Below, piece by piece: positions 6,543 to 38,820 of a stretch of 64,000 nucleotides of DNA. The stretch covers positions 704,001 through 768,000 of the forward strand of contig CAWCMR010000025.1 of assembly GCA_963796685.1 (NCBI GenBank), read 5' to 3'. How positions within the stretch are numbered: position 1 is the first letter of the stretch; each line of letters starts with the position of its first letter. The notes below the pieces were generated by a model. That model saw nothing but the letters and a program-made list of their open reading frames with translations, was not told the DNA's origin and made no database searches. The stretch is from an uncultured delta proteobacterium (GTDB lineage Bacteria; Myxococcota_A; Polyangia; Fen-1088). The translations under genes and the position numbers were made by a program.

Positions 6543-9050
<2,508 letters not shown>

Positions 9051-14486: not shown

Positions 14487-16358
14487 ATGCCTCACTACCG
14501 ATCACGCACCTCGACCTTCGGCCGCAACATGGCTGGCGCGCGCGCCCTTTGGCGCGCCACCGGCATGAAAGACGGAGACTTCGGCAAGCCCATCATCGCC
14601 GTGGTGAACAGCTTCACCCAGTTCGTTCCCGGTCATGTCCATCTCAAGGATCTGGGACAAATGGTCGCGCGAGAGATCGAGGCCGCCGGTGGCGTGGCCA
14701 AGGAATTCGACACCATCGCCATCGACGACGGCATCGCCATGGGCCACGACGGCATGCTGTATTCGCTGCCCTCGCGCGAGCTCATCGCCGATAGCGTCGA
14801 GTACATGGTCAACGCCCACTGCGCCGACGCCATGGTGTGCATTTCCAACTGCGACAAGATCACGCCCGGCATGCTCATGGCGGCCCTGCGCTTGAACGTC
14901 CCGGCCGTGTTCGTGTCGGGCGGCCCCATGGAGGCGGGCAAGGTCAAGCCGCCGAGCCAGGCCGGCAAAGACGGAGGCAAGGAGGTTCACGTCGATCTGA
15001 TCGACGCTATGGTCAAGGCTGGCGATGCCTCGGTGTCCGACGCCGACGTGGCCGAATACGAGCGCTCGGCGTGCCCCACCTGCGGCTCGTGCTCGGGCAT
15101 GTTCACCGCCAATTCCATGAACTGTCTGACCGAGGCCCTCGGCCTGTCCTTGCCCGGCAACGGCACCTTGGTCGCCACGCACGCCGATCGCAAGGCGTTG
15201 TTCCTGCGCGCCGGGCGGGTCGCGGTCGAGCTGTGCAAGCGCTATTACGAGAAGGACGACGCGTCCGCTTTGCCCCGCTCCATCGCCACCTTCGAGGCGT
15301 TCCAAAACGCCATGTCGCTGGACGTGGCCATGGGCGGCTCGACCAACACCGTGCTGCACCTGCTTGCCTGCGCGCAGGAGGCCGAGGTGAAGTTCACCAT
15401 GGCCGACATCGACAAGATCTCGCGCAAGGTGCCCTGTCTGTGCAAAGTGGCGCCGTCGACGGCCAAGTACCACGTCGAGGACGTGCACCGTGCCGGCGGC
15501 GTGTTCGGAATTTTGGCCGAGCTCGACCGCGCCGGGCTGATTCATGGCCAAGTGCCCACCGTGCACAGCAAGACCATCGGCGAGGCGATCGCCGAGTGGG
15601 ATGCGGCCACCAGCAAGGATTTGTCGGTGCGCACCTTCTATTCCGCGTCGCCTGGCGGCATCCCGACCCAAGAGGCATTCAGCCAAGACCGTCGCTTCGA
15701 TACGCTCGATTTGGATCGAAAAGAGGGCTGCATCCGCGACAAGGCGCACGCCTATTCGCAAGATGGGGGCCTGGCCGTGCTCTACGGCAACCTGGCGGAG
15801 AAGGGCTGCATCGTAAAGACCGCGGGCGTCGACGAATCGATCTGGAAATTTTCGGGCAAGGCGCGCGTGTTCGAGAGCCAGGACGAATCGGTCGAGGCCA
15901 TCCTGGGCGGCAAGGTCGCGGCCGGCGACGTGGTGGTCATTCGCTACGAAGGCCCCAAGGGCGGTCCCGGCATGCAGGAGATGCTCTATCCCACGAGCTA
16001 TCTCAAGTCGCGCGGGCTCGGCAAGGCTTGCGCCCTACTCACCGACGGGCGTTTCTCGGGCGGCACGGCCGGTCTGTCCATCGGTCACGTCTCGCCCGAG
16101 GCAGCCTGTGGCGGCGCCATCGCGCTCATCGAAGAGGGCGACACCATCGACATCGACATTCCCAATCGGCGCATCCACCTGGCCATCGGCGAGCAAGACC
16201 TGCAAAGGCGTCGCGCCGCCATGGAGGATCGCAAGGCCATGGCGTGGAAACCCAAGGCCCGCAAGCGCCAGGTTTCAGCCGCCTTGCGCGCCTACGCTGC
16301 CATGACCACCAGCGCCGACACCGGAGCGGTCCGGGACATCTCCCAGTTGAAGAGCTAG
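14487..16358 (+). CDS. ilvD: Dihydroxy-acid dehydratase
   Basis: [39 protein letters not shown] and TDGRFSG motifs. Confidence 0.97.
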
Positions 16359-22993: not shown

Positions 22994-24061
22994 TCAGACG
23001 TAGTAACCCTTGATGCACGACCACCCGTGGTACGAGCAGGTACAGGTGTAGAAAATGCCCGGCTCGTTGGCCCAGTCCGAGTAGGTGCAGCTCAAGCCGA
23101 ACCTGGCCGCGCTACAACCCTCGTGCTGGCTCGGCTTGTCCCTGAGGCAGGTGTAGTCCTGCGGCTTGGTGCTGGACGGAATCGCACACCCCGGCGTGGA
23201 AGACGATACCGAGGCGCAGACGGTGCCGGGGCAGCAGGTGCCGGTCGACGTTCCCCCGCAGTCCCCATCCTCAGGCGCTTCCCAGCAGGCATCGCTACGT
23301 GCCACGCACTTGCCGCCTGTGCAGTCGAGGCCCGCACAGCAGTCGGTTGTGGCGCCGCAGGCATTCCCGATCGCGGTGCAGGCCGGAACCGCCCGGCACG
23401 AATACGTCGAGCCGCCGTTGGCCGACACGCACTCGGTGCCCTGACAGCACGAGGTCGTCGGATCGCTACAGTCTTGGCCCACATCGAGGCAGCTCGCCAC
23501 CAAATCGGCGGTGCCGTCGTTCGCCCGCGCGTCGCCCGCGTCGACGGTCGCGGTGTCCTTTGCTCCCGAGTCGCCAGCGCCGTCCGTCCCGGCATCGATC
23601 GGTTGGCAAGCCCGGCTGGTGTCATTGGCCCCGTCTACGCAGCGGGTGCCCACGGGACACGCGATCTCAGGGCCATCGGAGTTGCAGCTTCCGCCTGAAC
23701 AGGGCCCGGGACCGCATACATAGTGGCAGTCATGGCTCGTGACCGGCTGGTAGCCGGTGGCAGTGCACCGGTAGGGGTAACTGCAGGGAAAATCGACGTA
23801 GCACATTGCGGTGGTGCCGCCGGTGGATACAATCGAGCCCCCGCTTCCGGCACCACCCCCGCTCCCGGCGCCACCCCCGCTCCCGACACCACCCCCGCTC
23901 CCGGCGCCACCCGAGGGACCGCCCGTCGTGCCCCCGCTCGGAGCCGCGCCGCCCGAGCCTCCCTTGGAAGGGAGCCCACTACTTTGACACCCGAACCCTA
24001 CCGGCAGAGCCAGGAGGACCAAATTCAGCACAAAGGTAGACCAGGAGGAGGTGATTCGCAT
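22994..24061 (-). CDS. Cys-rich lipoprotein with Gly-rich 18-bp tandem repeats
   Basis: Lipobox GFGC; GGG(A/V)GS repeats at 23853-23906; repeated C..C...CC.G..C modules. Confidence 0.7.
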   Translation of the reverse strand: MRITSSWSTFVLNLVLLALPVGFGCQSSGLPSKGGSGGAAPSGGTTGGPSGGAGSGGGVGSGGGAGSGGGAGSGGSIVSTGGTTAMCYVDFPCSYPYRCTATGYQPVTSHDCHYVCGPGPCSGGSCNSDGPEIACPVGTRCVDGANDTSRACQPIDAGTDGAGDSGAKDTATVDAGDARANDGTADLVASCLDVGQDCSDPTTSCCQGTECVSANGGSTYSCRAVPACTAIGNACGATTDCCAGLDCTGGKCVARSDACWEAPEDGDCGGTSTGTCCPGTVCASVSSSTPGCAIPSSTKPQDYTCLRDKPSQHEGCSAARFGLSCTYSDWANEPGIFYTCTCSYHGWSCIKGYYV

Positions 24062-24208
24062 GTCGCGCTTCGCTGCAATGTCCGAGCCAGTGCCAAGTAC
24101 CGCACGCCCGCGCGCAAGATCGCTGATCTATTGGGTGGGACCCTCGATGTGGCCGCAACCTTCACGACACGCTTCGGACATGAATGTCAGGGCGGGGTGC
24201 GGGCAGAA

Positions 24209-24255
24209 AATTTCGCTGTCGAAGCGGCGGTCACGAAGATGTCGCCTTGCGGGGC
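24209..24255 (-). pseudogene. ahcY-derived relic (APQGDIFVTA joined to FDSEI)
   Basis: Minus strand encodes two conserved AdoHcyase motifs joined by an internal deletion; matching part of ahcY lies beyond the window. Confidence 0.7.
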
Positions 24256-24302
24256 GCGCGCCGAGGCCCGAGGGCGCATCGCAGGACTGGGAGTATCGCT
24301 GG

Positions 24303-24350
24303 GTGATCGTACTCGACACGCACACCTGGCTGTGGTGGATACGCGGCGAG
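24303..24350 (+). pseudogene. N-terminal remnant of a PIN/VapC toxin
   Basis: Reads VIVLDTHTWLWWIRGE, similar to VVDTHALIWY at 58208; rest missing. Confidence 0.55.
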
Positions 24351-24410
24351 GCGCCAGACTCGATCACGGAGATTGATTGCATGTCGACCACATGCAGGTA
24401 TCCTAAGGTC

Positions 24411-24641
24411 ATGGCCAAGATGATTCAGGTCCGACACGTTCCCGACGACGTGCACCGACGCCTGACGGACCTTGCCAGACAGTCGCGCACGTCGCTGTCC
24501 GACTATTTGCTGGCCGAACTGGAGCGGACGAGCCTGCGGCCATCCCCGAAAGAGATTCTCGCGCGGCTGTCGAAATTGCGACCGGTTGCCACACGTGCCT
24601 CCATCGTGTCGGCGTTGCGCGAAGAGAGGGATCGGCACTGA
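24411..24641 (+). CDS. Ribbon-helix-helix (FitA-like) antitoxin
   Basis: MIQVRHVPDDVHRRL..LA...SLSDYL; overlaps PIN toxin. Confidence 0.85.
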   Translation: MAKMIQVRHVPDDVHRRLTDLARQSRTSLSDYLLAELERTSLRPSPKEILARLSKLRPVATRASIVSALREERDRH

Positions 24642-25030
24642 CCGTCCTTGACGCCTCGGTCGTGGTGGAGCTCTTGCTTGGCGGCAGGCGAGCGGCGGAG
24701 ATCCATGCCCGCCTGGCAAGCGAAGGACATGCCTGGCACGCGCCGCACTTGATCGAGGTGGAGGTGTGCCATGTCCTCCGGCGGCTGAATCTATCGCGGC
24801 AGATGACGGATGTGCGTGGACGGCAAGCGCTGCGAGACCTTTCGGCGCTCGGACTCTCCCTGCACGAGCACGGCCCACTCTTGCCGCGTGCATGGGGTTT
24901 GCGGGCCAATCTCTCTGCGTACGACGCAATGTATGTCGCCCTGGCAGAGGGCCTGCGCGCGCCTCTGCTCACACTCGACGCCAAGCTGGCGAAGACGACG
25001 GGGCACCTGGCGAGAATCGAAGTCTTGTAG
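24638..25030 (+). CDS. vapC: VapC-family PIN toxin (apparent CTG start)
   Basis: TVLDASVVVE, APHL..E and SAYDA.YVALAE..LLT.D motifs; CTGA overlap with antitoxin stop. Confidence 0.8.
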   Translation: MTVLDASVVVELLLGGRRAAEIHARLASEGHAWHAPHLIEVEVCHVLRRLNLSRQMTDVRGRQALRDLSALGLSLHEHGPLLPRAWGLRANLSAYDAMYVALAEGLRAPLLTLDAKLAKTTGHLARIEVL

Positions 25031-25088
25031 AGACCTTGGAGTATCATCCCGCCCCTGGTGGAGCTTCTCGAATGGAGCAGCGCTTGAG

Positions 25089-25532
25089 GTGACCCCGAAT
25101 GTTTCACAGGATAGTCTGGCGCGGGACCTGCTGGCGGCTGCCCACGCGGGTGACGTCGAGCGCATTCGACGACTGCTCGACGCCGGCGTGGATCCCACCT
25201 ATCTGCCAGCCGACGCCTTTGCGCCGGCCCTCCATCATGCCGTCGAGGCGGCCAGCGTGGAGGTTGTGCAAGAGCTGCTCCGGCGTGGGTGCCCGCCGGA
25301 GATCCGCGACCGCGCCAAGCAAACGGCACTGGGCACCGTCGTGCATGAGCTCGGCGAAGGCCGGGACGAGCCTACGGCCGCAAGGCTGAAGTGCATCGGC
25401 GAGCTCCTCATGGAGCGAGGAGCTTGTCCGACATGGCCATGCGATTCGGAGCACACCGCTCTCTCGTTGGCCAGGGCGTACGGCAGGCCGGACCTGGAGA
25501 GCTGGCTGGAGGCTCACGCCAAGACGCCTTGA
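25089..25532 (+). CDS. Ankyrin-repeat protein
   Basis: LLAAAHAGD...LLDAG, ALHHAV...LLRRG and TAL.LA repeats. Confidence 0.75.
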   Translation: MTPNVSQDSLARDLLAAAHAGDVERIRRLLDAGVDPTYLPADAFAPALHHAVEAASVEVVQELLRRGCPPEIRDRAKQTALGTVVHELGEGRDEPTAARLKCIGELLMERGACPTWPCDSEHTALSLARAYGRPDLESWLEAHAKTP

Positions 25533-25628
25533 GCCGTCGACAGCCGACCTGGTTACCGATTCGCTGACGTTGATGGCGGGGTCGTGGACGGGTCAGGCAC
25601 CTTGCCGACTCTTTCGAATTCGGCGCCC
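25533..25628 (-). pseudogene. ahcY-derived relic ([16 protein letters not shown] joined to PAINVSESVTRSAVD)
   Basis: 25581-25628 reverse complement matches ahcY 63661-63708 at 43/48 nt; adjoining part matches 63875-63919 at 35/45 nt. Confidence 0.9.
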
Positions 25629-26312
25629 TCATTCGTTACAGCGCATGTCGGAGCCGAGCAGAGAATCGTACCGCTCGAGCAAAGGGCCGACTTGTGGCTG
25701 CAGGGTCGTTTCGGAAAGGAGAAAGAGCAGACTGTGCCCGCGTACCTTCGAGCGGAACATAGTCAAGATGGGCAGGGCGAAGTTTGAGCGACCTGACTTG
25801 ACGACAGCCCTGTACGCAGCCGCCAATTGCTTGCACTTTGGAAACTCGACCACGAGGAGCCCGACGTGCAGAGGGCCAGCCGAGGTTTGCGCATGCAGAT
25901 GGGCCTCATCCACGCGATCCGCCAGGCGGAAAACCCGTGCGCCGAAGTCCTTGGCAAGCCATGCCAGCCTTTCCTTCCGCTCGGGGTTGTCCACGAGAAT
26001 CTGCCAGTCGTTCCAGGAACGCAGAGACAGCGATGCGAAGATCGCCTTGAGAGCGCTGCGAAAGTCAGCGGGTGCATTCTCGACCGAAGCAGGCACCGCA
26101 ATGGTCGCGACGGGAGCGTCGGCGCTTGGCCGGGCGACCGCTGCCAGTGGCATTGCGGCAGCTTGCGAAGAGGTAGCCTTGCTCGACGATACCGATCCTG
26201 CGCAAGAGGCGAGCACCGCCAGGACCAGGGCCGCACTGCAGCCGGCACGACCCCATGTCAGCGAAGCGTAACGGCTGGAAGTGTCGCCGGCAGGTAGGTA
26301 ATCGTCATGCAT
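25629..26312 (-). CDS. Hypothetical putative lipoprotein
   Basis: 227-aa ORF with hydrophobic stretch ending LASC; fills the gap between two ahcY relics; start uncertain. Confidence 0.5.
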   Translation of the reverse strand: MHDDYLPAGDTSSRYASLTWGRAGCSAALVLAVLASCAGSVSSSKATSSQAAAMPLAAVARPSADAPVATIAVPASVENAPADFRSALKAIFASLSLRSWNDWQILVDNPERKERLAWLAKDFGARVFRLADRVDEAHLHAQTSAGPLHVGLLVVEFPKCKQLAAAYRAVVKSGRSNFALPILTMFRSKVRGHSLLFLLSETTLQPQVGPLLERYDSLLGSDMRCNE

Positions 26313-26369
26313 GCAGAATCACCGATCTCCTTGAGCTGAAGCGCAAGGGTAGGCGGTTCGGTCCGCCCT

Positions 26370-26460
26370 TTCTATGGTAATCACCTCGGCCCCTTCCATC
26401 GCCGCCTGCAAGGGGCGCCACGACCGACCCGTCGATGTTGATGGCGGGGATGGGCAGCCG
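26370..26460 (-). pseudogene. ahcY-derived relic (RLPIPAINIDGSV joined to LQAAMEGAEVITIE)
   Basis: 26422-26460 matches ahcY 63863-63901 at 31/39 nt; 26370-26411 encodes the conserved AdoHcyase LQAAMEG motif. Confidence 0.85.
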
Positions 26461-26645
26461 GCGGGAGAAGTTGCTCAGCATTGGAGTAACCCTGGGTGGT
26501 ACCGCCGTAGCGCGTGGCCGCGTGGCGGTGCCAGACCGCGACGCCGTATTTTGGTACCGACAGGCCCGGCCCCTGACGACGGCTCGCCGTTCGGCCTTCA
26601 GAATCCTGGTGGCACCCGGTCGCATTTCTTCACTACAATACCCAG

Positions 26646-27680
26646 ATGCACCGCTTGGTCCTTCTGCTCGCTGCCCTCGCAGGTCTCATGGGCTGCCGCG
26701 AGCGGAGGACAACCTCGCCAGCGCTGACGGTGCGCTACCTCAAGGGTCAGCTTCACCTGCACTCGTCGCGTTCGGGGGACAGTCGCACCCCACCTGACCA
26801 GGTGGTGCGTTGGTATGGCGAGCATGGTTTCGATTTCATCGTGTTCACCGATCACAACCGGGTCGGCCTACCCATGGGTTCGTCGACGCCGCTGGTCTTC
26901 TCTGGGGTGGAGCTGACCCAAAACCTACGCACCTGCACGCCGCCGCCCGCTCCTGGGGACCAGTGCCTGCTGCACATCAATGCCCTCTTGGTTCGACCGG
27001 GGGTGGATGGTTTGGATCCGTGGCGGCCCGAGGTCATAAGCGACCGCCGCGCTGGCTATGGCCAGGCGATTGCCGCCGCCACGCGAGCCGGCGGCTTGGC
27101 GCAACTCAACCATCCCAATTTTCACTATGCGGCCGATGCGGCGTTGCTGACAACGCTGGTGCGCGAGGAAGGGTTGCGCTTCTTTGAAGTGGCCAATGGT
27201 TCGTTCGATGCTGGCAACGCGGGCGACGCCAGCCATCCGTCCACCGAGGAGCTTTGGGATCGCGTGCTCAGCGCCGGCGGCTGGCTCTACGGCACCGCGA
27301 CGGACGACGCCCATCACTACTATGACGCCGACGAGCTGGCGGCGCGCGGCCAGCCCGTCTTCACGGGCGGACGAGGTTTCGTGATGGTCCGCGCGCGACC
27401 AGACGTCGACGCCATCCGTGCCGCCCTGGTGCGCGGTGATTTCTACGCTTCCAGCGGCGTGCTCCTTGATCGGGCCGAGCTTGCCCATGGCACCCTCTTC
27501 ATCGACGTGGCCTCGACCGGCCCACACACCATCACCTTCATCGGCCAAGGCGGAAAGATCCTCGCACGCAGCGAAGGTCGCCACGCCCGCTTCGCCCTCG
27601 CCCCCACCGGCTACCTCCGCGCCGTCGTCGAAGACGGGCAGGGGAGCAAAGCATGGATCCAGCCTGTTCGTGTGCGCTAG
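26646..27680 (+). CDS. PHP-domain (CehA/McbA-like) metallohydrolase lipoprotein
   Basis: KGQLHLHS..SGD, FTDHN, GVE, NHP and TDDAH metal-binding motifs; lipobox LMGC. Confidence 0.85.
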   Translation: MHRLVLLLAALAGLMGCRERRTTSPALTVRYLKGQLHLHSSRSGDSRTPPDQVVRWYGEHGFDFIVFTDHNRVGLPMGSSTPLVFSGVELTQNLRTCTPPPAPGDQCLLHINALLVRPGVDGLDPWRPEVISDRRAGYGQAIAAATRAGGLAQLNHPNFHYAADAALLTTLVREEGLRFFEVANGSFDAGNAGDASHPSTEELWDRVLSAGGWLYGTATDDAHHYYDADELAARGQPVFTGGRGFVMVRARPDVDAIRAALVRGDFYASSGVLLDRAELAHGTLFIDVASTGPHTITFIGQGGKILARSEGRHARFALAPTGYLRAVVEDGQGSKAWIQPVRVR

Positions 27681-27690
27681 ATCTGGCATC

Positions 27691-28020
27691 ATGTCCAAAC
27701 ACACCGTCGAGAAATGCGGTGTGAAGGCGCGGGTTCAAGCGGGGGTCGCTGTTGGCGCGCTGGATGACCGCGCGGCGGGTGCCAGAGGTCTCCTCCGCGA
27801 ATGTGCGCTCGAGGAATCAAACGGTGATGCGTCGATGGTCGCCAAGGCCATCGGCGACATCGCTCGAGCAAGAGGGATGAGCCAGGTCGCGAAAGATTCA
27901 GGTTTGTCCCGGGAAAGCCTTTACAAGGCCCTGTCGGGCGAGAGAAGCCCCGGGATCGACACGATCCTCAAGGTCATCAACGCTCTGGGCATCAAGCTGC
28001 ATGCCGAGGCGCGGACGTAG
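27691..28020 (+). pseudogene. Orphan addiction-module antidote (HI1420-like HTH), N-terminus degenerate
   Basis: AIGDIARARGMSQVAKDSGLSRESLYKALSGERSP; no cognate killer gene upstream. Confidence 0.75.
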
Positions 28021-28024
28021 GAGC

Positions 28025-28190
28025 TGACCCGGTGATCAGCCCACGCGCGCCCAGGCCGCGGCCCGCCTGGGCGGAGCCCTTGCCCACGTCGCCCTAGCCC
28101 AGGGACCACCACGACCTTGCCCGCCATCATGACGTCGGTGACGCGCTCGCCGCCGTCGAGGAGCCAGCTGGTTGGGTCAGATTCGCTCGT
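28025..28190 (-). pseudogene. ahcY-derived relic (LLDG.ERVTDVMMAGKVVVV...GDVGKGSAQ.RGLGAR)
   Basis: 28107-28163 matches ahcY 63944-64000 at 48/57 nt and continues, with a frameshift and stop, into the NAD-binding GxGDVGKG motif. Confidence 0.92.
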
Positions 28191-28974
28191 CAACGTGACG
28201 GGTACACCTACGGAAGCGTTTCCGCCACCGCCAGTGGTGCCTCGCCGTGTTGCCTATCTCCATGAAGCTTTTGCACAAAAGCACCACACGGTTATCATGA
28301 CTTCATGGCGGTGGATCCACTGGTCGAGCTTCCTGAGAAGAGTGAAGGCGGTCCGGTTTCGACGCTGGAACGAAGGGTTGGGGCCACGTGGATATCTCTG
28401 GCGCAAGCGCGCCTTCGCGCACGCGAGACGCGCGAAATGCTGGGGCGAGCACTTGAATCGGCGTGCTCGTCCGAACTGAGCATCGTCGTCTACGGCTCGC
28501 TGGCGCGCGACGAGTTCACCGAAGGAAGTGACGTCGACTGGACGCTCTTGATCGACGGCCCTGCGAACCGCAGACATCTCGACACCGCTCACGACATCGA
28601 AGCCGAGCTAGAGGAACTTGGCATGAAAGAGCCAAGCCGTGACGGTGCGTTCGGCGCGATGACCTTCAGTCATGACTTGGTCCACCAGATCGGCGGCGAG
28701 GATGATCGCAACAGCAATACAACCCGCCGCATTCTGCTGCTACTCGAATCCGCGGCCCTTGATCCCTCCGAGGTGAGAAGGGACGTCATCACCAAGGTCC
28801 TCAGCCGATATGTCCTCGAGGAGCCAACCTTCGCTCACGGGACCAAGGCCCCACATGTTCCACGGTTTCTCCTCAACGATTTTGCCCGCTACTGGCGAAC
28901 GATGGCAGTGGACTTCGCCCACAAGGCTAGAACCGGGTTTGGCAAGAAAAGTGCGCTCAGAAACCTCAAGCTAA

Positions 28975-30302
28975 GGTCTCGCGCGTAAATAAAAGAGCGC
29001 ATATAGGGACAATTGCGTATATTGTGCACTCAAAGGGAAGAGTGTCGCAATATGGACGAAGTGGAACGGGTTCGAAAGCTCTTTTGTGATCTGACGCCCA
29101 TTTTGAATGAGCGCCAGATTCGACTGTGGGCCGCAGCGGAAGCAGAATCACTGGGTCGCGGCGGCGTCGCCATCGTCACTCGCGCGACCGGCCTGCGCCA
29201 CAAGAGAATCGTTGCAGGGAAAAGAGATTTGCAGGTGCAGCGGGAGACGCCGCCATTGGCGGCACCATGCGAACAGAGGGTGCGCCGCCCCGGTGCTGGG
29301 CGCAAACGCATTGAGGATCAGGACCCAGAACTGGTCAAAGCCCTTGAGCGTCTGATCGACCCCGCTACACGAGGAGATCCGGAATCGCCGCTTCGTTGGA
29401 CAAGCAAAGGCACGCGGCGCCTCGCTGAAGAACTGACAGCGCAGGGGCACCCGGTCAGCGCAACCAAGGTGCGAGAGCTACTGGTGGATCTGGACTACAG
29501 TCTGCAGGCAAACCACAAGACCAGAGAGGGCAAGCAGGATCCAGACCGAGATGCCCAGTTCGAGTACATCAACCGCCGGGCGAAGGAGTTCCAGTCGAAG
29601 GGGCTGCCTGTAATCTCTGTCGACACCAAAAAGAAGGAGAACCTGGGCGATTTCAAGAACGGAGGCCGCGAATGGGAGCCGAAGGGTTCGCCGGTTCCCG
29701 TCCGGGTTCATGACTTCATTGACAAGGAACTCGGCAAGGCGATTCCGTATGGCGTGTACGACCTCGCAAGGAACGAGGGTTGGGTGAGCGTGGGGATTGA
29801 CCACGACACCGCCGAGTTTGCAGTGGAAACCATCCGTCGTTGGTGGAAGAGGATGGGCAAGGCAGTGTATCCGGAAGCGGAGGAGCTGCTCATCACTGCG
29901 GACGGAGGTGGCAGCAACGGGGCACGAGTGCGTCTTTGGAAGACAGAACTTCAGGAATTCGCGGACGAGAGCGGATTGCGGATACAAGTAGCGCACTACC
30001 CGCCTGGGACGAGCAAGTGGAACAAGATCGAACACCGGATGTTCTGCCACATCACCGCGAACTGGAGGGGGAGGCCGCTTGAGACTCTCGAAACCGTCGT
30101 CAATCTGATTGGAGCCACAACGACAAAGCGGGGCCTCCACATCCGCGCCGCCGCCGACCGGAACTCGTACAAAAAGGGAATCAAGGTCGCACACGAGGAG
30201 ATGGAAGCCGTCAATCTTCGCCCCGCCCGTTTCAGAGGTGACTGGAACTACACAGTCACGCCGCAATCAGACTAATGCGATCAGTTATTTTCGCGCGAGA
30301 CC
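28975..30302 (+). mobile_element. ISAzo13-family insertion sequence, 1328 bp
   Basis: Terminal IRs GGTCTCGCGCG(T/A)AAATAA; 3-bp target duplication TAA (28972-28974 / 30303-30305). Confidence 0.92.
29052..30275 (+). CDS. ISAzo13-family transposase
   Basis: RGDPESPLRWT, ISVDTKKKE, KAIPYGVYD, ADGGGSNG and PPGTSKWNKIEHR motifs. Confidence 0.93.
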   Translation: MDEVERVRKLFCDLTPILNERQIRLWAAAEAESLGRGGVAIVTRATGLRHKRIVAGKRDLQVQRETPPLAAPCEQRVRRPGAGRKRIEDQDPELVKALERLIDPATRGDPESPLRWTSKGTRRLAEELTAQGHPVSATKVRELLVDLDYSLQANHKTREGKQDPDRDAQFEYINRRAKEFQSKGLPVISVDTKKKENLGDFKNGGREWEPKGSPVPVRVHDFIDKELGKAIPYGVYDLARNEGWVSVGIDHDTAEFAVETIRRWWKRMGKAVYPEAEELLITADGGGSNGARVRLWKTELQEFADESGLRIQVAHYPPGTSKWNKIEHRMFCHITANWRGRPLETLETVVNLIGATTTKRGLHIRAAADRNSYKKGIKVAHEEMEAVNLRPARFRGDWNYTVTPQSD

Positions 30303-30750
30303 TAAGGATGTCGCGGAAGCTGATCTTCGTTTCTGGACTCCTGTCGTGCTTCAGCTGCCAGCTCGGTTTGGCGCAAGCCGCTGGCCGCGCCGGCTGTCCA
30401 GGTAGAGACGAGGCCTGCGTCGCTTGCTTGAGAGCCTTCATGCATTTGAGGCCACTCGATACCTTCGCTTGCACCGCGCTTGGACTTGCCGACAAGGATC
30501 CAGAAAACGAGAAGAAGATCCTGCGGGCAGCTGCTGATGCTTTGACTGCATACGACGAGTTCCTACAGATTCTCTCTGACAAGACGAGTCGAGGCCATCT
30601 CGAGGCGCTTGCTCCCGAAGCCGTTGATTCCGATCCCCTTTTCGGGCAAGGCAGGCAGATTTCCCACCGCTTCCAAGCGGCCATCGACTCGTTTTTCTTC
30701 GATGGAGACCCGGAACTTGGTAAGCTCACACGCCACTACGGAGTCTTCTA

Positions 30751-31503
30751 ATGCGCCTTGTCGGTTTTTCCACCGGAGCCCTCGCCCTTGCCGATTTTCG
30801 GCGAGGCTTGGACATGCTCGCAGGAACCAGCGCGAAGGCCGTCGAGCTTTCGGCGCTAAGATCTGCAGAGCTCGATCCCCTGGTGGACTCGCTCGATGGT
30901 TTGGACCTCAGCCGCTTCGCGTATGTCTCGGTCCATGCGCCGGCCGGGATCGATTCAAGCGACGAACCGCACGTCGTCAAGAGATTGCAGGAAGTCGCCG
31001 CTCGCGGCTGGCCCATCGTCGTACACCCTGACTCCATTCACGAACCCTCGCTGTGGAAGGGTCTCGGCAAGCTGGTCTGCATCGAGAACATGGACAGGCG
31101 CAAGCCAATCGCGCGTACCTGCGACGAGTTGCGCGTCTGGTTTGATCGACTGCCGGACGCCCGCTTGTGCTTTGACCTTGCGCACGCGCGACAGATCGAT
31201 CCCACGATGACGGAGGCGTACCTCATCCTTCGCGAGCTCGGTGACCGTTTGACCGAAGTGCACCTCAGCGAAGTCAACAGCGCCAGTAAGCACGAGCCTA
31301 TCTCACACGCTGCCATGCTCGCCTATCGCCAGATCGCCTCGCTGATCCCGACCTCAGTTCCGGTGATTCTCGAATCGATCGTCACGGCCGAGTTCATCGA
31401 CGACGAGATCGATGCGGCCCACGAATCATTGGCCGTCGACGGTCCCCGCCCGCGCATCCGCGCCCGACGCTCGGGCGCGACTCCCAAACCGATACACGCG
31501 TAG
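30751..31503 (+). CDS. Xylose-isomerase/AP-endonuclease-2-like TIM-barrel protein
   Basis: VEL, SVHAP, VVHP, IENM, CFDLAHA, EVHLS and ILES motifs; TAATG overlap with the NTase. Confidence 0.8.
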   Translation: MRLVGFSTGALALADFRRGLDMLAGTSAKAVELSALRSAELDPLVDSLDGLDLSRFAYVSVHAPAGIDSSDEPHVVKRLQEVAARGWPIVVHPDSIHEPSLWKGLGKLVCIENMDRRKPIARTCDELRVWFDRLPDARLCFDLAHARQIDPTMTEAYLILRELGDRLTEVHLSEVNSASKHEPISHAAMLAYRQIASLIPTSVPVILESIVTAEFIDDEIDAAHESLAVDGPRPRIRARRSGATPKPIHA

Positions 31504-31571: not shown

Positions 31572-34500
31572 CTAGTCTTCGGTGGTCCGGTCGCTTCGGA
31601 CAGAATGCCAGGCGCGAGTAACGGTCTTCGGCGAGAGAAGGGCACGCAGCTGGTCGATCTTATCTTCCGTGACCACAAGCATCGTGCCCTTCCCAAACAT
31701 CGCATCATCCGTGAAGGAAGAACGCACACCCCCGTCTCGCCACCTCACAGTTCTCGCAACGATCTCACCGCTTCCATCGTGGATCGCAAGGACGTTGTTC
31801 TCGTCGTGCTGCCAGCCCAGACTTCCGGCAACGCGCGGGCACAGGCTCAACGTGTAGGGCTCGCTGGCGCCGAAGTAGTCCGGCTGGAGCATCACGACGG
31901 CGCCCGGTGCGGGGCCATCATACAAGGGCACGAAATCGTCTGGGATCAGTACACTGGGAAGGCTGGCGAGCGCTTTTGACATGGAAGTCCAGCTGTCGGT
32001 GCCGGAACGAGACGGCCCATAGTACTGCTCGGCAATCCAGGATTCTCCCGTATACCTGCTCTTGCGGCGCGCAACGGACGCAACAACGACATGACCTGGC
32101 ATCACAGGTACCTTCGCGTCCACCTCGCTGTTGGCTAGCCACGCCGCACGGGCCTCGGCTCGGTAGCGCTCTGGAAGTTCGACCTGCGGCACGCCCTTGG
32201 GGCGAGGCTCAAATGGCACCGTGCAAATCCGAAGGGAGAACGCAGCCGCGTGGCAGAGCGCGTACGGGACACCCCCCAGGTCAATTGCATCAGCTGCCAC
32301 CAGTTCCCCGATGACCTCACGAGTGGCTCTCCACGCTGCGTCCGTCATCAGCCTGCGAAACCTGCACTCCAAAGACAAGCTCCGCAGCCGGTGCTGCTGC
32401 CGAAGGTTCGCGTCTCGCCCGAACAACGATGCACCACCCATATCCTGCATTCTCTGAGCAACGCGCATACGGATATTTGCGACACCTAGTCCACTTGCCT
32501 TCGCAACAATCCCTATCGCCTCCTCCAAGTGCGACGTCCAATCCTCGACGTCGTCACCAAGTCCGTCGAGGCGGGGAGCCTCGTTCTGCGGCCATCCATC
32601 AAACCGGTTCAATCGAGAACCCGACGGTATCTCCAAGTGATAAATTAGGGACAGCTCACCACGCTTCCTTTCAAGCTCCTTTGCCCACCTCGTAGCCAGC
32701 ATTTCCGCAATTCGGCGGACAGCGAAGTCATCACAATTCCCCATTTCACCAAGGATGGCGATTATCGATTCCCGAATCGCAGCAACTTCACGACACTCCC
32801 AGGCGATCTCCGCAGCCTGGATAGCACAGTGGCCACCAGCATGCCAAAGTCGTGGCAATAACGCCGCCACGACACCGACCCCATTCTGCATTCCCGACAG
32901 CTCGACTGCGGCGACACGTGCCTGGTAGGCGAGGTCGTGCACCGTTGTTTGAAACGCTCTATAGAGTACGTCCGCGAGAATCGACTCTCCTCTTCCGTCG
33001 CTTTCCGTCACATCATCAACCTCCACTGCATCTTTGTACTCTCGGAACTCCCTCAAGAGATCCGCCAGAGACTCCCACGCATCGGCCCAAGTCGGTTTCG
33101 GCAGCAGAAGCTCAAGAATCTCGTCGAGAGCAGGGGGAAGATAGTCCATGTATCCTCGCCGCGCAGCGAGATCGTCGACGAAGCTGTCGAATGCCTCGCG
33201 GCGAGCATGGTGGCCATTCACCAGCACATTCAGCTTGTGGTAACGAAGCTTCGTGCTACCGAGCCAGCCTCCCCACCCACCTTCGTCTTTCGCCAGTTCT
33301 CGCAACCGAGCGACACAGTCTTCAGCATCAGCTCTTCGTCCCGCCCCAAACGCCATCTTTCCGATGGTCTCGGTCGCCCCTGCGTCACCATTGATCCGAT
33401 TGTACGCATCGAATACTCCCTTGGCTTTGTCGTAGTCACTTCGAACAGCGATCCGCTCAAACGCGTCTGCGGCGCGATAATGGTCCTTGTGCTCTGCGAG
33501 CTTGTTGACTAGCTCATCCAATGTCCGCACAAGGAAGAATGGATCCTCGGGGCTGCTTCCGGATCTCGGGGTAGGTAACTCGCTCTGCCACCGGATCAAG
33601 GCATCGCGTCCCATCAACAGGCCGCGGTCCGCAGCCGCTTTGACGACCTCTTCGAGAAACAAAATCTTATTGTCCAAGTGCGCGTCGGTCTCAATGCAAA
33701 GGATCGCGTGTTGGATAACGGACTTAAGCTGATTGTCCGAAGCACGACCAATAAGCTCGCGATAAATGCTCCCGGTGCGCTCGTTTCCGAAGGGAAGGCC
33801 CACCCTCCCGAAGACTACCCCAGCCGCTGCCACCAAATCTTGTCGGTTCGCCACGGCGCCCATCAGTGGTCCTTGAACCAACATATGCCAGTGCACCAGG
33901 CCAATCACCTCCACCAGATCGACCGCCCGTATCTCCCAGGCCGGGCCAGCTTTGGCCGCTTGCTCCAAGAACACCCGCGTTAGTCGCAAACCGGCGCCAT
34001 CCCCGCTGGTCTCTGCCATTCCTACGAGAATTCGGCCCAAGAAGCGTAGGCGTTCCGGCCGATGAGTTGGATCTTCGTCACATGCTCGCTGAAACAGATC
34101 CCGCCAGACGACATATTGAGGATCCTTCTTTGGTGCCCTGGCATAGCCCACAGCGTCTGCCTGGACATCGGTGAGAATTGCCCGAGCCCGTTCCTCAAGC
34201 CCAAATCCAGCCAGGGCAGACGCAGCACTCGCGGCTTCCGCAAATTCCGCAGGGGGATCTTTCCCCGCGCCCCGTCGGTAAGCGACCCGGGCCTCGGCTT
34301 TGGCAGCGTTTTGTTCGTGTTTGAAGGCCGCTGCAGCATAGGCGCGTCGAACGCGCAGTCGCGTGAGCCGGCGCGCTCCTTGAGCCAAGAGATTGTCGGT
34401 CGCGCTGGTCACTCGCCCGAAGATGTCGTCGCCGAACAAAGCAGCCGATTTGGTGATTAAGGCGACAACCTCATCCATAGTGTCGTCGATACCCATTCGG

Positions 34501-37362
34501 ACAAGGTCGTGGTCTCGCTCGCCCTCGGCCCGGTCCAGAAACGTGAGTGTAGAGAGGAGTTCTTCCACCACGTCCGTCGACGGTGTTCTTCCTGCTTTAC
34601 CCTCACCGACAAGACGTCCAACCACCTCAAGACGGGCTTGATACTTCGACAACAGATCAGAGTTCGGCTGTTCCCCGGAGGTGTGAGGCCATCCGAAAAG
34701 AGCTGCCATGGCGGCATGGTCCACGACCGCATGTACAGCGTCTCTGAGTTCGCTGCCGCCATAGGCCGACTCGAACCCCCGAAGAGTTGGAGGCGGCAGT
34801 CCGTCGAGGAATGAGGTCGCTAGATCTTTCCTGGAGACTCGGAGAGCGAGCCTCGCGAAACTCCGTCTGACCCAAGGCTTCAGACCGTTCAGCGACGCCA
34901 CTGACTCCAGGTGTCGGATCGCAGTTTCGCGACCATCAGGCACGTTCAACGCGGCCCAGCCTGCACGAAGCAGCAGGTCGTCCCGGTATCCAGGATCCAC
35001 TCCGAACTGTGCAATCAGAGCGTCAATTGGGGTCGTTGGCGAGCGACGAAGGTGCCCTGCAATCGCTTCAAATCTGAGGAAGCTCCGATAGCGCTCAATG
35101 TCGAATTCGGGTTCGTGTTCCGGAGCGGGCGCCCGCAGTCGTCCCAGGGCACTATCAAACGCCACTCGATCGCGAAAGATAAGGACTCGGTTTGCCCACT
35201 CAAGAAGAGCCTCGCCCTCGTCGCCCCGAAAAGGTACCGGCTTGTGCCCAAGAAGAATTTCGGTCGGCTCAGTCTCAGCGAATAGGCGGCCTGCTTCATC
35301 TAAGTCGCCGGTGGCGACGAGGGCATCGACCAGCATATAGCCCTTGGCTTCGCCGATATTGACGCCCTCTTTACGGGCCGCCCTAAGCAGATCAGACGCC
35401 CGGCCGAATTCCCCGATATCGACAGAGAGCCTCGAAGAATTCGTTGCCGTACGCCTCCAGGCGCATGCAGGTCTCATGTCGAGCCATCATCAAATTCAGG
35501 ACGAGTCGACAATCGCGCAGCCTCTTCGCAGAGAGGAAGGCCAGACAGATGTCCCTGTGTATCTCCGGCACAGATCGTCCCTCAACAAGTTGAGAGCTAA
35601 AGTGTGCACGTGTGGCGAGGGCCGCAACCCGCGCATCGTCGTGAGCCCGAGCTCGATAACGAAGCTCCATCCACCGTTGAGGGTCCTGCGGACCGGCGTG
35701 GCAGGCCATTTCCGCCAACTCAGCGTATCGGGAGTTGATACCTGCCTCGTCGGTGAGATCGTAGCGTAGGCCGGTCTTCTCTCGGAGGAACAGTCGGAAG
35801 CTGTTGTGGAAGATCGACCACGCGTGGTCTTTGTTCCTGTTCATCAGATGGCGTGCTGCGGACCAGGCGGCCTCGGTAGCTTGACGTCCGACCATTCGCT
35901 CAAGACTTGCCGTGGTGATGGCTCCTTCGACCAGCGCAAGATAGGCAAGCGCCCGCTGCGCATCAATGTTCGAGTCCAGTTCTCGCCAGGCCCGAGAATA
36001 GACTGCTTCAACATCGTCTCCGTATGCAGGCCCGCGACGAAGCCACTCCCGCCGCGCTGTCGAGGTGTTGGCTGCAAGCAAACCTCGGATGATATAGCGC
36101 GCGGACAAGGGGTGACCTGCGCAGCGTTCGTACAGCTCAACCCTATCGACGTCAGCTGGGACCCCACATGCTGCTGCCAACGAGTGAATTGCCTCGCGGG
36201 ATAGGGGCGAAATCGTGACACAACGGTCGGGCCTTGCAGCCTGCACCGCCACCTCTCCCGGCATATCCTCACCCAGGTCTAGCCTTTGCGTACTGAGCAA
36301 GAACACCACTCCCTCAGGGACAGCATGCGGCAGCGGCAGTTCACTAAGGAAGGAACGTATTGGGGTCTCCTCGCGAGGCACATGGTCGAGGCCATCTACA
36401 AGGATCACAGTTTTGCTGCCATCCTCCTTAAATCGTCTGCTGCATGCACGCAGGGCCCCCTCGAACTGCTCCCGCAATTCCCGCAGTTCAGTCCCAGGGA
36501 CCATTTCAATCGAGTGGCTCTGTTTCAGCTGCCTGATCACGTCAGAGAGAAAGTCAGATGCCTCCGCCCGCCCCAAGCCGTGCTCCTCGGTGGGCACGAA
36601 AGCGAGATACCTCACCAGAATAGTCTGCGGAACCTGAAACACTCCAGCTGCGAGTAGAGTTGACTTGCCGGAGCCCGGCGGCCCAATCAGGCTCGCGTAG
36701 CCAGAGGACACCGTCGCAAGTACCTTCTGCAGGACACGTTGAGTGGCGGAGTTCGCCTGAAACAGACCGTCGACTGGAAACTGCCCGCTGTGCCGAAGTA
36801 CGCTTGGGTCACGCCAACCCAGCTCCCTCAGCAGCTCCGATTTCGTCCAGCGATTCTTTTTGCCAGATTCTGCCACCAGGCGCGGTATGCAATTCGCAAT
36901 CTCTCGGATGCGCCGGACATCCCCGTCGCTGGGATCAAGAATTCCGAGAGTCCGTCCGTCCTGGCTAGTAACAAAATGCAAGTTGCGCCAGACAATCTCG
37001 AACTCACCGTCGGACAAGCCCGCGCCTACGAGCAGTTCATCAACCAGTGCCGCGTAGGGTGAACATCGCCAATCAGCAAGGTTCCACCGGAGCCGCTCGT
37101 CCGCAAGCACTTGCAGCAGTTGCGCAGAAGATACCCTCTGCGCGCCCCCGCCCACGTCGTCGTCTTCGCTGGGTGAGTCGTCACAGACGTAGACCGTCTC
37201 GATAGGAACGTTCTGGGGGAAGACGCCAAGGTCTCGACGCGAGTCAATGATCTTCCGCCAGAGCCCCTTCGCGCCCAGCAGTACTGTCTTGGCGTTGAAC
37301 GACCCTGGATCTCGCGTCGTCTTCACCTGGTAGGCAATCACCTTGCCGTGCAGCCCTAGGAC
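31572..37362 (-). pseudogene. Very large nuclease-STAND/NACHT-like ATPase (Avs-like), 5'-truncated by IS4, frameshift near 35425
   Basis: AYQVK nuclease-like motif, Walker A GPPGSGKST, Walker B ILVDGLDH, GHPL; ORFs 35392-37383 and 31572-35477 join as FFEAL/VDIGEF if one base is removed. Confidence 0.8.
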
Positions 37363-37375
37363 CAATGCCAGTCGG

Positions 37376-38698
37376 TTAAGCATTTGAAGGCCGTTTTCTC
37401 GGGAAATTGCTCATTTTGATCTTCACGGCCCGTGGATATCTGCGGGCCGTGCGCCGCTCTGGGAGAACAAGGCTGGTGAAGAGCTCTCGCATGGTCTTGA
37501 GGCGAGTAGGCAAAGCGCCGGGCGAGGCGAGCGCACACCATGACCAGGTGTCACAGATGATCCGAAGTGACGTGACGAAGCTGATGCGCGTGGGCTCGAC
37601 GCCGAAATCGTCGGCAGTCCTTTCCATTTCGAGGCGAATCAAGTTGTACGCGAGAAGAATGCCCCACAATTCCTGCTCGACGCCAGCGACGCTGCGGCAG
37701 CGGATGCTTTCGAGACGGTCGAGCATATCGGTCTTGATTTCGCCATAGCCCAGTTCCAGCTCCCAGCGCTCGTGATAAAGGCGGGCGACCTCGGCAGCGG
37801 GGAAGGCGTCGGGGTCGAGCATCGAGGTGAGCACGATCTGAGGACGGAATCCCTTCACCTGGTAGGTGATCGCACGTGCCAGATAGGTCGCTGGCAAACT
37901 TGGGTCCTGCTTTCGCGCCTCGCGCGAAACCGTCAACTCGACCAGGTCGTCGTTCTTCCCGAGGTGCTCCACGACGCGCCATTTTGTGGTCGACTTGGCG
38001 CGAGTCAGCCAATGGCGATTCTTTCCATCGCGGGCCAGCGGCACCAGGATTCCGGCTGCCAGGAAGCCGCGGTCGACCATCACCAGCGCATTGTCCGGCA
38101 CGGCTCGCCACAGAAACGCGCTCAGCGTGATTTCACTGTCTTCGTAGGGGCCGAATTCGGCGGCCACCAGAATGTGCGAACGCAACGCCATCAACGCGGC
38201 GATTCGAACCAGCGGATAGCCACTGTCGCCTCGGTCGCCTCGGGTTCCACCGAAATGAGCGCGATTTTCCGGAGAGTCTGCCACGCGAAGCGTGGACCCA
38301 TCCACACCGTAGAGCGCCAGGCCTCTCCATGCGTGCTTGCGCGCGCTCTCGTGGCCCCACTTCTGAGCGCTCATCTCGAAGATCCGTTCCAGCGGCTCGG
38401 CACCAACGCGCGCCCGAGCCTCAGCGACCGTGCTGGGAACAACCGTTGCTCGTGGTCCAGGCAGAACCAAATTCAGCTTCCCAACCAAGTCCGCAATAGG
38501 CCACTTCCGAAACATGGCCATTCCAATCACCAGCCACACCACCTGGTCGGCTGGAAGCCGTCGCTTTCGCACCGTGGCTGTTCCAGTCGCCGCCAGAGCC
38601 TCGGCCACCCACGCAGGGTCAATGTGCTGCCTGATGCTCTCGAACTGCTCGGGCGCCGTGAATACGCTTACCGTCTTGAGGGAACTATCCAGATGCAT
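37376..38698 (-). CDS. IS4-family transposase
   Basis: RKRRLPA..VVW, GVDGS, VDRGF and YHERWELE...EIK (YREK) motifs. Confidence 0.93.
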   Translation of the reverse strand: MHLDSSLKTVSVFTAPEQFESIRQHIDPAWVAEALAATGTATVRKRRLPADQVVWLVIGMAMFRKWPIADLVGKLNLVLPGPRATVVPSTVAEARARVGAEPLERIFEMSAQKWGHESARKHAWRGLALYGVDGSTLRVADSPENRAHFGGTRGDRGDSGYPLVRIAALMALRSHILVAAEFGPYEDSEITLSAFLWRAVPDNALVMVDRGFLAAGILVPLARDGKNRHWLTRAKSTTKWRVVEHLGKNDDLVELTVSREARKQDPSLPATYLARAITYQVKGFRPQIVLTSMLDPDAFPAAEVARLYHERWELELGYGEIKTDMLDRLESIRCRSVAGVEQELWGILLAYNLIRLEMERTADDFGVEPTRISFVTSLRIICDTWSWCALASPGALPTRLKTMRELFTSLVLPERRTARRYPRAVKIKMSNFPRKRPSNA

Positions 38699-38762
38699 GA
38701 CCTTCTCCATCGAAGATCGATGCATGGTGACTTCGCTTCTTGCCTAAAGGCAAGAAGCGAAG

Positions 38763-38771
38763 TTATCCACA
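38763..38771 (+). promoter_or_regulatory. Consensus DnaA box within the IS4 transposase promoter region
   Basis: TTATCCACA followed by GATC at 38781, 38791 and 38810; function not shown. Confidence 0.4.
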
Positions 38772-38820
38772 GGAATTCCTGATCAATTTCGATCACTTAC
38801 GCGCTAACCGATCGGCATTG

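Follow-up and report, generated by a model that had tools for sequence, protein, structure and literature searches.

In this study we ask how pieces of a housekeeping gene came to lie between unrelated accessory genes. The DNA analysed, referred to as the window, is a stretch of 64,000 nucleotides (nt) from an uncultured delta proteobacterium (G000:C25:704001-768000, where G000 is the source genome, a 7.3-Mb metagenome bin with 88.6% completeness and 6.5% contamination). At 24.2-28.2 kb, small cargo genes are separated by spacers that resemble ahcY. An original prediction, made from the sequence alone, regarded the spacers as scars of repeated capture events anchored at ahcY, one for each event. 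It appears more probable, at roughly 60%, that the array is what remains of old partial duplicates of ahcY in a hypervariable island between ilvD and ahcY, and that these remains were multiplied and re-sorted by ordinary recombination among ahcY-derived repeats, together with illegitimate joins.

Pieces of ahcY between the cargo genes

The intact ahcY was compared with the whole source genome by blastn (word size 7), and the pieces were refined by local alignment. The top non-self matches in the genome all fall inside 24.2-28.2 kb, and all are on the minus strand. In a significance control with 200 dinucleotide shuffles per spacer, scored on both strands, none of the 200 reached the minus-strand score at 24209-24255, 25533-25628, 26313-26645, or 28021-28304, while the plus-strand scores stayed at background level. 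Therefore, the four spacers are indeed degenerate minus-strand ahcY, as had been proposed. A tentative fifth relic at 25061-25083 (tested as 25031-25088) has a score of 12, which was equalled by 53 of the 200 shuffles, and it is attributed to chance. The blastn match around relic A extends over 28163-27996 (ahcY nt 721-884, 82% of 169 nt, E 5e-34), of which the relic itself takes up nt 721-857; it abuts the 3' end of a HigA-type gene. The match at 26464-26360 (E 3e-5) splits into relics B1 and B2 (Table 1).

As a negative control, 80 unrelated ahcY loci (AhcY at most 82% at the amino acid (aa) level, flanks of up to 10 kb per side, 1.26 Mb altogether) were searched, the nearest of which carry Haliangiales or Myxococcales labels of metagenome-assembled genomes (MAGs). 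Matches at E<=1e-4 were found at 12 of the 80 loci; 11 of them are merely 58-74% identical and compositional, and a single locus has a clear fragment, of 77 nt at 97%. In this locus (L037 8771-8847, from a MAG labelled Magasanikbacteria), a second copy of the first 77 nt of ahcY lies some 1.2 kb upstream of the gene.

Along the minus strand, the pieces in the window follow each other as nt 721-857; 642-678 and 868-925; 437-486 and 655-686; and 921-951 of ahcY. They are out of gene order, overlapping, and internally deleted. The stretch encoding PAINVNDSV is present twice (25555-25581 and 26423-26449), being the sole notable direct repeat found in a repeat search of 24000-28400, and nt 642-686 likewise occur twice in the window. 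When the arrays of G000 and three related genomes (G002, G005, and G067) are taken together, six of seven relic-to-relic transitions restart at a lower ahcY coordinate. Because of these restarts and overlaps, the pieces represent several partial copies and not one gene cut by insertions; a single split pseudogene is thereby ruled out, in agreement with the original prediction. Judged from the alignments, at least three partial copies are present both in the source genome and in G002.

Since the source genome is a bin, an artefact of assembly has to be considered. The same junctions, however, recur in the independent assemblies of G002, G005 (with the public contig L114), and G067, and they are spanned by public soil-metagenome contigs, each of which covers just part of the stretch (X1 record 7 over 27991-28308; X5 record 27 over 27853-28084). 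Moreover, the fragments are diverged and contain indels, which assemblers do not create, and an artefact is scarcely credible.

Arrays in related genomes and mutations of a dead copy

The family set consisted of 89 genomes, and an order-level query returned the same 89. Extra pieces of ahcY occur in at least eight of them, belonging to three genera. In G002, G004, G005, and G067, the relics are located downstream of ahcY, on the same strand, among varying cargo that includes toxin-antitoxin pairs, nucleases, and nucleotidyltransferases; in G005 and G067, just the 3' end of ahcY is assembled beside them. Within the genus, the content 3' of ahcY differs in all eight long-type genomes examined, four of which have relics, so that variable cargo with ahcY relics in relatives, proposed as a check on the idea of an ahcY-bound array, was found. 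The genus has two types of ahcY, a long (source-like) and a short one, which are 42-56% identical at the protein level. Both types are present in G004 (C22:126277-127735 and C7:423239-424129), where the long-type copy shows an apparent 1-nt frameshift and could be a pseudogene or the result of an assembly error.

The mutations of the relics were judged against seven intact ahcY genes. Relic A of the source genome, relics r1, r2, and r3 of G002, and relic a of G005 share a G>C substitution at nt 781, closely followed by a frameshifting insertion of 1 nt; all seven intact genes lack both changes. The substitution changes Ala to Pro in what reads as the NAD-binding glycine motif. Since a working gene cannot have carried the frameshift, the five relics descend from an already dead copy and are not independent cuts of a live gene. 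Other relics are shared as well. The junction between relic and HigA gene is found twice in G002 (at r1 and r3) and once in the source genome, and the junction between relics C and D equals that of the G067 contig minus 9 nt. Relic B2 and a relic in G064, a genome of a different genus, have three derived changes in common (nt 832, 895, and 903), and the end of the G004 relic (nt 926) coincides with the B2 end coordinate. Relic e of G067 and the piece in G022 share two derived sites and a common end at nt 1007. Both the sharing of relics between genomes and the multiplication of dead copies are thus shown.

These results divide the proposal of ahcY-anchored capture. The idea of ahcY as an anchor is supported in part, since G002, G004, G005, and G067 show that the array is a feature of the 3' flank of this gene. 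That each capture left its own scar is not supported in view of the shared dead-copy substitution and frameshift, and the claim is at odds also with modules found elsewhere without relics and by junctions shared across genera.

In the source genome, the only match to the AdoHcyase profile is the intact ahcY, which lies 35 kb from the relics on the opposite strand because of an inversion between two inverted copies of an IS4-family insertion sequence (IS). The copies are 99.6% identical across 1477 nt. Synteny and the IS4 pair together indicate that recombination between the copies inverted 38825-64679 and moved ahcY away: positions 38825 and 66157, which flank the pair, adjoin each other in G010 and G007; the ahcY region of G002 is joined to the island, which is collinear with the window from 31506 to 22975; and the synteny breakpoints relative to the relatives are the exact sites of the pair. 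Before the inversion, ahcY would have been on the minus strand with its 3' end toward the island. Target-site duplications of the two copies in swapped register gave no match, the ends of the IS being uncertain. The 25.9-kb segment between the copies has the opposite orientation in G002, G007, and G010. Elsewhere in the source genome, at least five additional copies or fragments of the element are present.

When relic extents and ends are compiled over 14 pieces from seven genomes, the relics cover nt 437-1112 only, of the 1458-nt ahcY, and they end at nt 686-766, 857, 921-926, 951-967, 1007-1049, or 1112. It might be asked whether the pieces are retained for a function, with the transcripts of plus-strand cargo carrying ahcY-antisense stretches that could modulate ahcY mRNA. 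Relative to the cargo genes on the plus strand, every piece is antisense, and one is a perfect 31-mer. The extents, however, vary by genome, most pieces have 10-30% mismatches, and relic A is conserved no better than its surroundings between G000 and G002 (95.9% over the whole 1777-nt block), which makes such a role highly improbable.

Most cargo blocks lie between two ahcY segments that overlap, of which the left lacks its 3' part and the right its 5' part; unequal crossing-over, or insertion-duplication via repeat homology, leaves such a pattern. The blocks are 85-96% identical between genomes with an ilvD-side flank of 70-84%; between G000 and the G067 contig, the corresponding values are 92% for VapBC, 88-94% for ahcY, and 70-76% for the flank. 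Because the blocks are more identical than the flank, horizontal exchange of blocks is suggested, probably by recombination in the conserved flanks. Among 26 informative sites in the relics, 25 have the state of G000/G002/G010/G004, none that of G011/G007/G006, and one neither; these unpolarised sites speak for similarity and not for origin. No mosaic breakpoint, the sign of a replaced 3' end, was found in the intact ahcY of G002, G010, and G004, along which divergence is fairly even. The relic signature had six matches in public metagenome contigs, one of them related (L114, 99.5% to the G005 contig), without a new arrangement.

Illegitimate joining occurs at ahcY, since in G022 (L023 = G022:C148) ahcY up to nt 1007 is joined to ahcY from nt 273 in a 10-nt microhomology (8049-8238 to 6863-8058). 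This partial tandem duplication lies within ahcY, and a second ahcY is located on a different contig of the same genome.

Table 1. Relics, genes, and elements of the window, with the arrays of related genomes (positions are those of the window)
Feature	Position	Strand	Remarks
Relic A	28027-28163	-	ahcY nt 721-857; 86.8% over 136 nt vs intact ahcY
Relic B1	26422-26458	-	ahcY nt 642-678; 81% of 37 nt; second PAINVNDSV copy
Relic B2	26360-26416	-	ahcY nt 868-925
Relic C	25580-25629	-	ahcY nt 437-486; 45/50, E 1e-8
Relic D	25546-25577	-	ahcY nt 655-686; 28/32; joined to C by internal deletion
Relic E	24226-24256	-	ahcY nt 921-951; 31/31, E 8e-5; outermost piece
Intact ahcY	63224-64681 (window ends 64000)	+	485 aa, 1458 nt; Pfam AdoHcyase E 4e-142
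IS4-family element, copy a	37350-38824	-	Pfam Nterm_IS4 + DDE_Tnp_1
IS4-family element, copy b	64680-66156, past window end	inverted vs copy a	begins at ahcY stop codon
ilvD (dihydroxy-acid dehydratase)	14487-16358	+	outer island flank, conserved in G004 and G005; Pfam ILVD_EDD on orthologues
PIN-toxin gene fragment	24281-24358	+	N-terminal piece only; PIN assigned by eye from translation; DNA 88-90% at G000:C10 and G001:C4
VapBC-type pair	24411-25030	+	RHH antitoxin 24411-24641, PIN toxin 24662-25030
Small ankyrin-repeat protein	25089-25532	+	Pfam Ank E 5e-10
227-aa protein	25629-26312	-	no Pfam family; lipoprotein-like N-terminus; module 25639-26353
344-aa PHP-like protein	26646-27680	+	weak: Pfam PHP E 1.7e-4, below cut-off
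HigA-type antidote gene	27691-28020	+	Pfam dnstrm_HI1420 E 1e-23, profile positions 27-89 only; no HigB partner
Nucleotidyltransferase gene, split	28305-28988 + 30275-30751	+	ISAzo13-family IS inside, transposase 29013-30275; Pfam
TIM-barrel protein	30751-31503	+	Pfam
1301-aa protein	31572-35477	-	no Pfam family
STAND/AAA NTPase	35392-37383	-	Pfam
G002 array			ahcY, Mrr-like gene, r1 (nt 581-857), HigBA, r2 (733-871 + 1046-1112), TIM-barrel + nucleotidyltransferase, r3 (721-857), truncated HigA, more genes
G004 array			ahcY, VapBC, NTP_transf_8 gene, relic (nt 827-926), ilvD
G005 array, contig 1			ahcY 3' end, Mrr-like gene, HigBA, relic a (nt 745-793 + 882-967), TetR + methyltransferase genes
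G005 array, contig 2			relic b (nt 723-1049), ilvD; order of the two contigs assumed
G067 array (other genus)			ahcY 3' end, relic (nt 913-1007), VapBC, relic (nt 450-492 + 641-766), 64-nt HigA end

How the array may have arisen

A likely evolution of the array can be described as follows. A partial duplication of ahcY beside the gene may have founded it, possibly by homology-facilitated illegitimate recombination, a mechanism that had been offered for the capture events. The debris would have been inherited and not created anew with each gene gain; already dead copies have multiplied, and they would have been trimmed by deletions and re-sorted with the cargo blocks. Homologous recombination between the repeats derived from ahcY, whether by unequal crossing-over or by blocks with flanking repeats inserting anew, may have acted together with illegitimate, microhomology-type joins and with the insertion of small self-contained modules, while larger pieces would have been swapped between strains via homology in the conserved flanks, all without a dedicated recombinase. 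Different lineages would thus have come to hold different arrays, and in the source genome the IS4 inversion would have come afterwards. The locus is a clear natural example of a variable island that can grow beside a housekeeping gene without an integrase, and in which dead copies of the neighbour are retained, multiply, and move along with the cargo. Should the repeats guide recombination, host recombination alone would offer a simple and general route to cassette arrays. It would also call for caution with annotation pipelines in which fragments of this sort are taken for scars of attachment sites.

Several observations weigh against old debris as the explanation. In five genomes, the alternation of cargo with ahcY pieces is nearly one-to-one, which is more regular than random decay and hints that the gain of a block is coupled to the gain of a repeat. 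The three copies in the source genome flank three different cargoes, and cargo is repeated only for HigA; simple segmental duplication is disfavoured because the cargo would repeat too. The parts nt 1-436 and nt 1113-1458 are covered by none of the 14 pieces. Several relics begin within nt 721-733, and ends are concentrated at nt 921-926 and 1007; this clustering could reflect either common descent or a preferred break site. The outermost relic E is identical to ahcY at 31 of 31 positions, for which we calculate a chance of about 1 in 75 at about 87% identity; it may be younger or gene-converted. Finally, the founding duplication and each of the recombination steps are inferred, not observed.

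Among described systems, the orphan arrays that follow Rhs, contact-dependent inhibition (CDI), and type VI secretion system (T6SS) effector genes come closest. According to Kirchberger et al. (2017; PMC5361080), sequential displacement gives rise to arrays of orphan modules behind rhs, cdiA, and T6SS effector genes, the proposed mechanism being homology in the conserved gene with illegitimate joining. These arrays likewise consist of a main gene followed by co-oriented leftovers among small toxin/immunity-type genes, without a dedicated recombinase, and they differ in that ahcY encodes a housekeeping enzyme, that its cargo is unfused, and that its leftovers are internal and degenerate.

Transferred to ahcY, displacement would mean that incoming DNA is anchored by homology in or upstream of the gene and joined illegitimately at its other end, bringing a full ahcY with cargo and pushing the resident 3' remainder downstream as a scar. 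Besides the published precedent of this kind, the arrangement itself is in keeping with it, since in five genomes the relics are co-oriented, downstream of ahcY, and alternating with cargo (in G000 after undoing the IS4 inversion), and several relics begin near nt 721-733. The outermost relics are the closest to live genes (100% for relic E, 94% for relic b of G005, 90% for the G004 relic). Between G000 and G004, ahcY and its upstream gene are 92-93% identical vs 73-86% in other shared regions, which is compatible with recombination at the locus. However, the leftovers in the known arrays come from a formerly functional resident copy, whereas five ahcY relics share a frameshift and a substitution found in no intact gene, so that this relic family multiplied after its death. 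The 3' end of ahcY is in no relic, unlike a freshly displaced remainder. Identity to the live ahcY, going outward, is 86.8, 70.2, 89.0, and 100%; the original prediction had proposed to test whether divergence rises with distance from ahcY, and no such gradient or any monotonic trend with position exists. An origin of relic b of G005 from a lineage different from the resident one was sought and not demonstrated, the resident gene being partly assembled. Overall, displacement appears improbable.

The bracketing pattern might instead mean that the ahcY repeats are portable homology arms, by which blocks loop out or enter other arrays through RecA-dependent crossover, with the repeat recreated on each side. 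Such an insertion-duplication would resemble Campbell-type integration of DNA with an internal gene fragment, which is a laboratory tool or a plasmid event. In both, cargo lies between overlapping direct repeats, the left one 3'-truncated and the right one 5'-truncated; here, by contrast, the process would act repeatedly and on dead copies. In agreement with it, HigBA of G002 lies between a piece ending at nt 857 and one beginning at nt 733, VapBC of G067 between nt 1007 and nt 450, and the 227-aa gene of the source between nt 925 and nt 437, and the relic parts that enclose one and the same VapBC module differ between G000 and G067. Such arms would account for the alternation, for pieces out of gene order, for the absence of a recombinase, and for the way dead copies have multiplied. 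Some room is left for them by the parts of ahcY that no relic covers, by the clustered starts and ends, by the perfect 31-mer of relic E, and by an alternation too regular for decay alone. Nevertheless, homology between genomes stops sharply at 24359/24370 and at 25030 and does not run into the flanking repeats; repeats of 30-300 nt that are 70-90% identical are poor substrates for RecA; the modules are also found without relics; and no circular or alternative junction was seen. We therefore regard portable repeats as doubtful, and equally so the broader idea of a homology-arm cassette system without a recombinase, in which host recombination would cut out blocks bracketed by dead ahcY, duplicate them, and place them in any ahcY-like repeat. 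If it were true, toxin-antitoxin and defence genes would move between strains, and even genera, of soil myxobacteria-like organisms, and the cassettes would always land beside and never inside the essential gene.

Chromosomal integron arrays hold small, promoter-poor cargo including toxin-antitoxin pairs, separated by short recurring spacers. The ahcY array is similar in its small cargo and its spacers, but it has neither IntI nor attC-type repeats, and its spacers are heterogeneous and derived from a coding gene.

Tandem accretion of islands or prophages with an integrase duplicates part of the target, such as the 3' ends of tRNA genes or of icd (e14/phage 21), and it leaves co-oriented fragments of the target gene that separate accessory blocks beside the target. 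A site-specific integrative element of the integrase type or of the Tn7-like type that targets ahcY, with tandem accretion duplicating its attachment region, could thus be imagined from the location by a housekeeping gene that is conserved and from the recurrence of fragments of this target, and from these only. At ahcY, however, the fragments come from inside the gene (nt 437-1112), differ in extent, and overlap; instead of a duplicated 3' end with a common junction core, they have ends without a constant core, and neither terminal inverted repeats nor recurring attC-type inverted repeats were found at the spacers in the repeat search of 24000-28400. Pfam profile scans of 17 open reading frames (ORFs) of the window and 236 ORFs from the ahcY flanks of eight relatives revealed no integrase, no other tyrosine or serine recombinase, and no Tn7-type genes; the mobility genes detected were only those of ISAzo13 and IS4 and an rve_3 fragment. 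The statement that neither an integrase nor attC is visible is thus confirmed, and an integrative element is very unlikely.

A search for a recombinase beyond the 64 kb had also been proposed. In a whole-genome search with PF00589, no match was found in the window, and the closest was a trio of tyrosine recombinases at C25:679384-683852, about 20 kb before the window start and about 44 kb from the array; no resolvase was found on the source contig. The tyrosine-recombinase cluster recurs on contigs C10, C11, and C12 and looks like a recombinase-trio-type element. Within the literature library searched, integration at ahcY is not reported.

The island and its cargo

Replacement islands, or 'minimal mobile elements', lie between conserved core genes and are exchanged by homologous recombination. 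The ilvD-ahcY island resembles them in that the same flanks enclose varying gene sets without mobility genes of their own and that the blocks are far more identical than the flanks. Synteny on the ilvD side stops at window 16356/16358 in G004, G005, and G003, with ahcY on the opposite side of the varying content. To our knowledge, replacement islands have not been described as carrying repeated fragments of the flanking gene between cargo genes. The island lies between ilvD and the 3' end of ahcY; in the source genome, it extends over about 16.4-37.3 kb, as far as the inversion point, and the array is its inner part. On L004 (G003:C415), a 2.6-kb contig with neither ahcY nor a relic, the VapBC module of the window (93%) is located exactly at the ilvD-side boundary, between the equivalents of window 16358 and 16372.

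The genes between the relics are unrelated to each other, as judged from the Pfam scans and as had been stated in the original prediction. The VapBC pair (FitA-like_RHH E 1e-4, below the cut-off; PIN E 3e-9) is a discrete module with bounds at about 24359/24370 and 25030, and it is present with the same ends at 89-93% DNA identity in G003, G006, and G067. Cargo modules without adjoining relics, at 79-96% identity, are found for VapBC (G003 and G006), the HigA-type gene (G004, G010, and G012), and the 227-aa gene (G001, 79% at the DNA level). Of the PHP-like gene, only the 3' half (from 27215) is common to G002.

Gene fragments abound in the region, which besides the PIN stub and the split nucleotidyltransferase holds part of a multi-copy sequence and a remodelled HigA. 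In this HigA-type gene, the 5' part has been replaced; homology to other HigA genes begins at 27795, and 27795-28026 has DNA matches of 90-96% in four genomes, while the HigBA pair is intact in G005 and G002. About 80 nt that form the 5' part of this ORF (27699-27777) match the multi-copy sequence, which has 12 or more occurrences on contig C9 (35 nt, 94%) and a single one on C5 (79% of 80 nt). The nucleotidyltransferase gene is uninterrupted in G002, where L012 8072-9276 and 9263-11034 abut. The 1301-aa protein and the STAND/AAA NTPase are possibly a defence-type pair, and among the genomes compared this pair (31572-37383) is present in the island of the source genome only.

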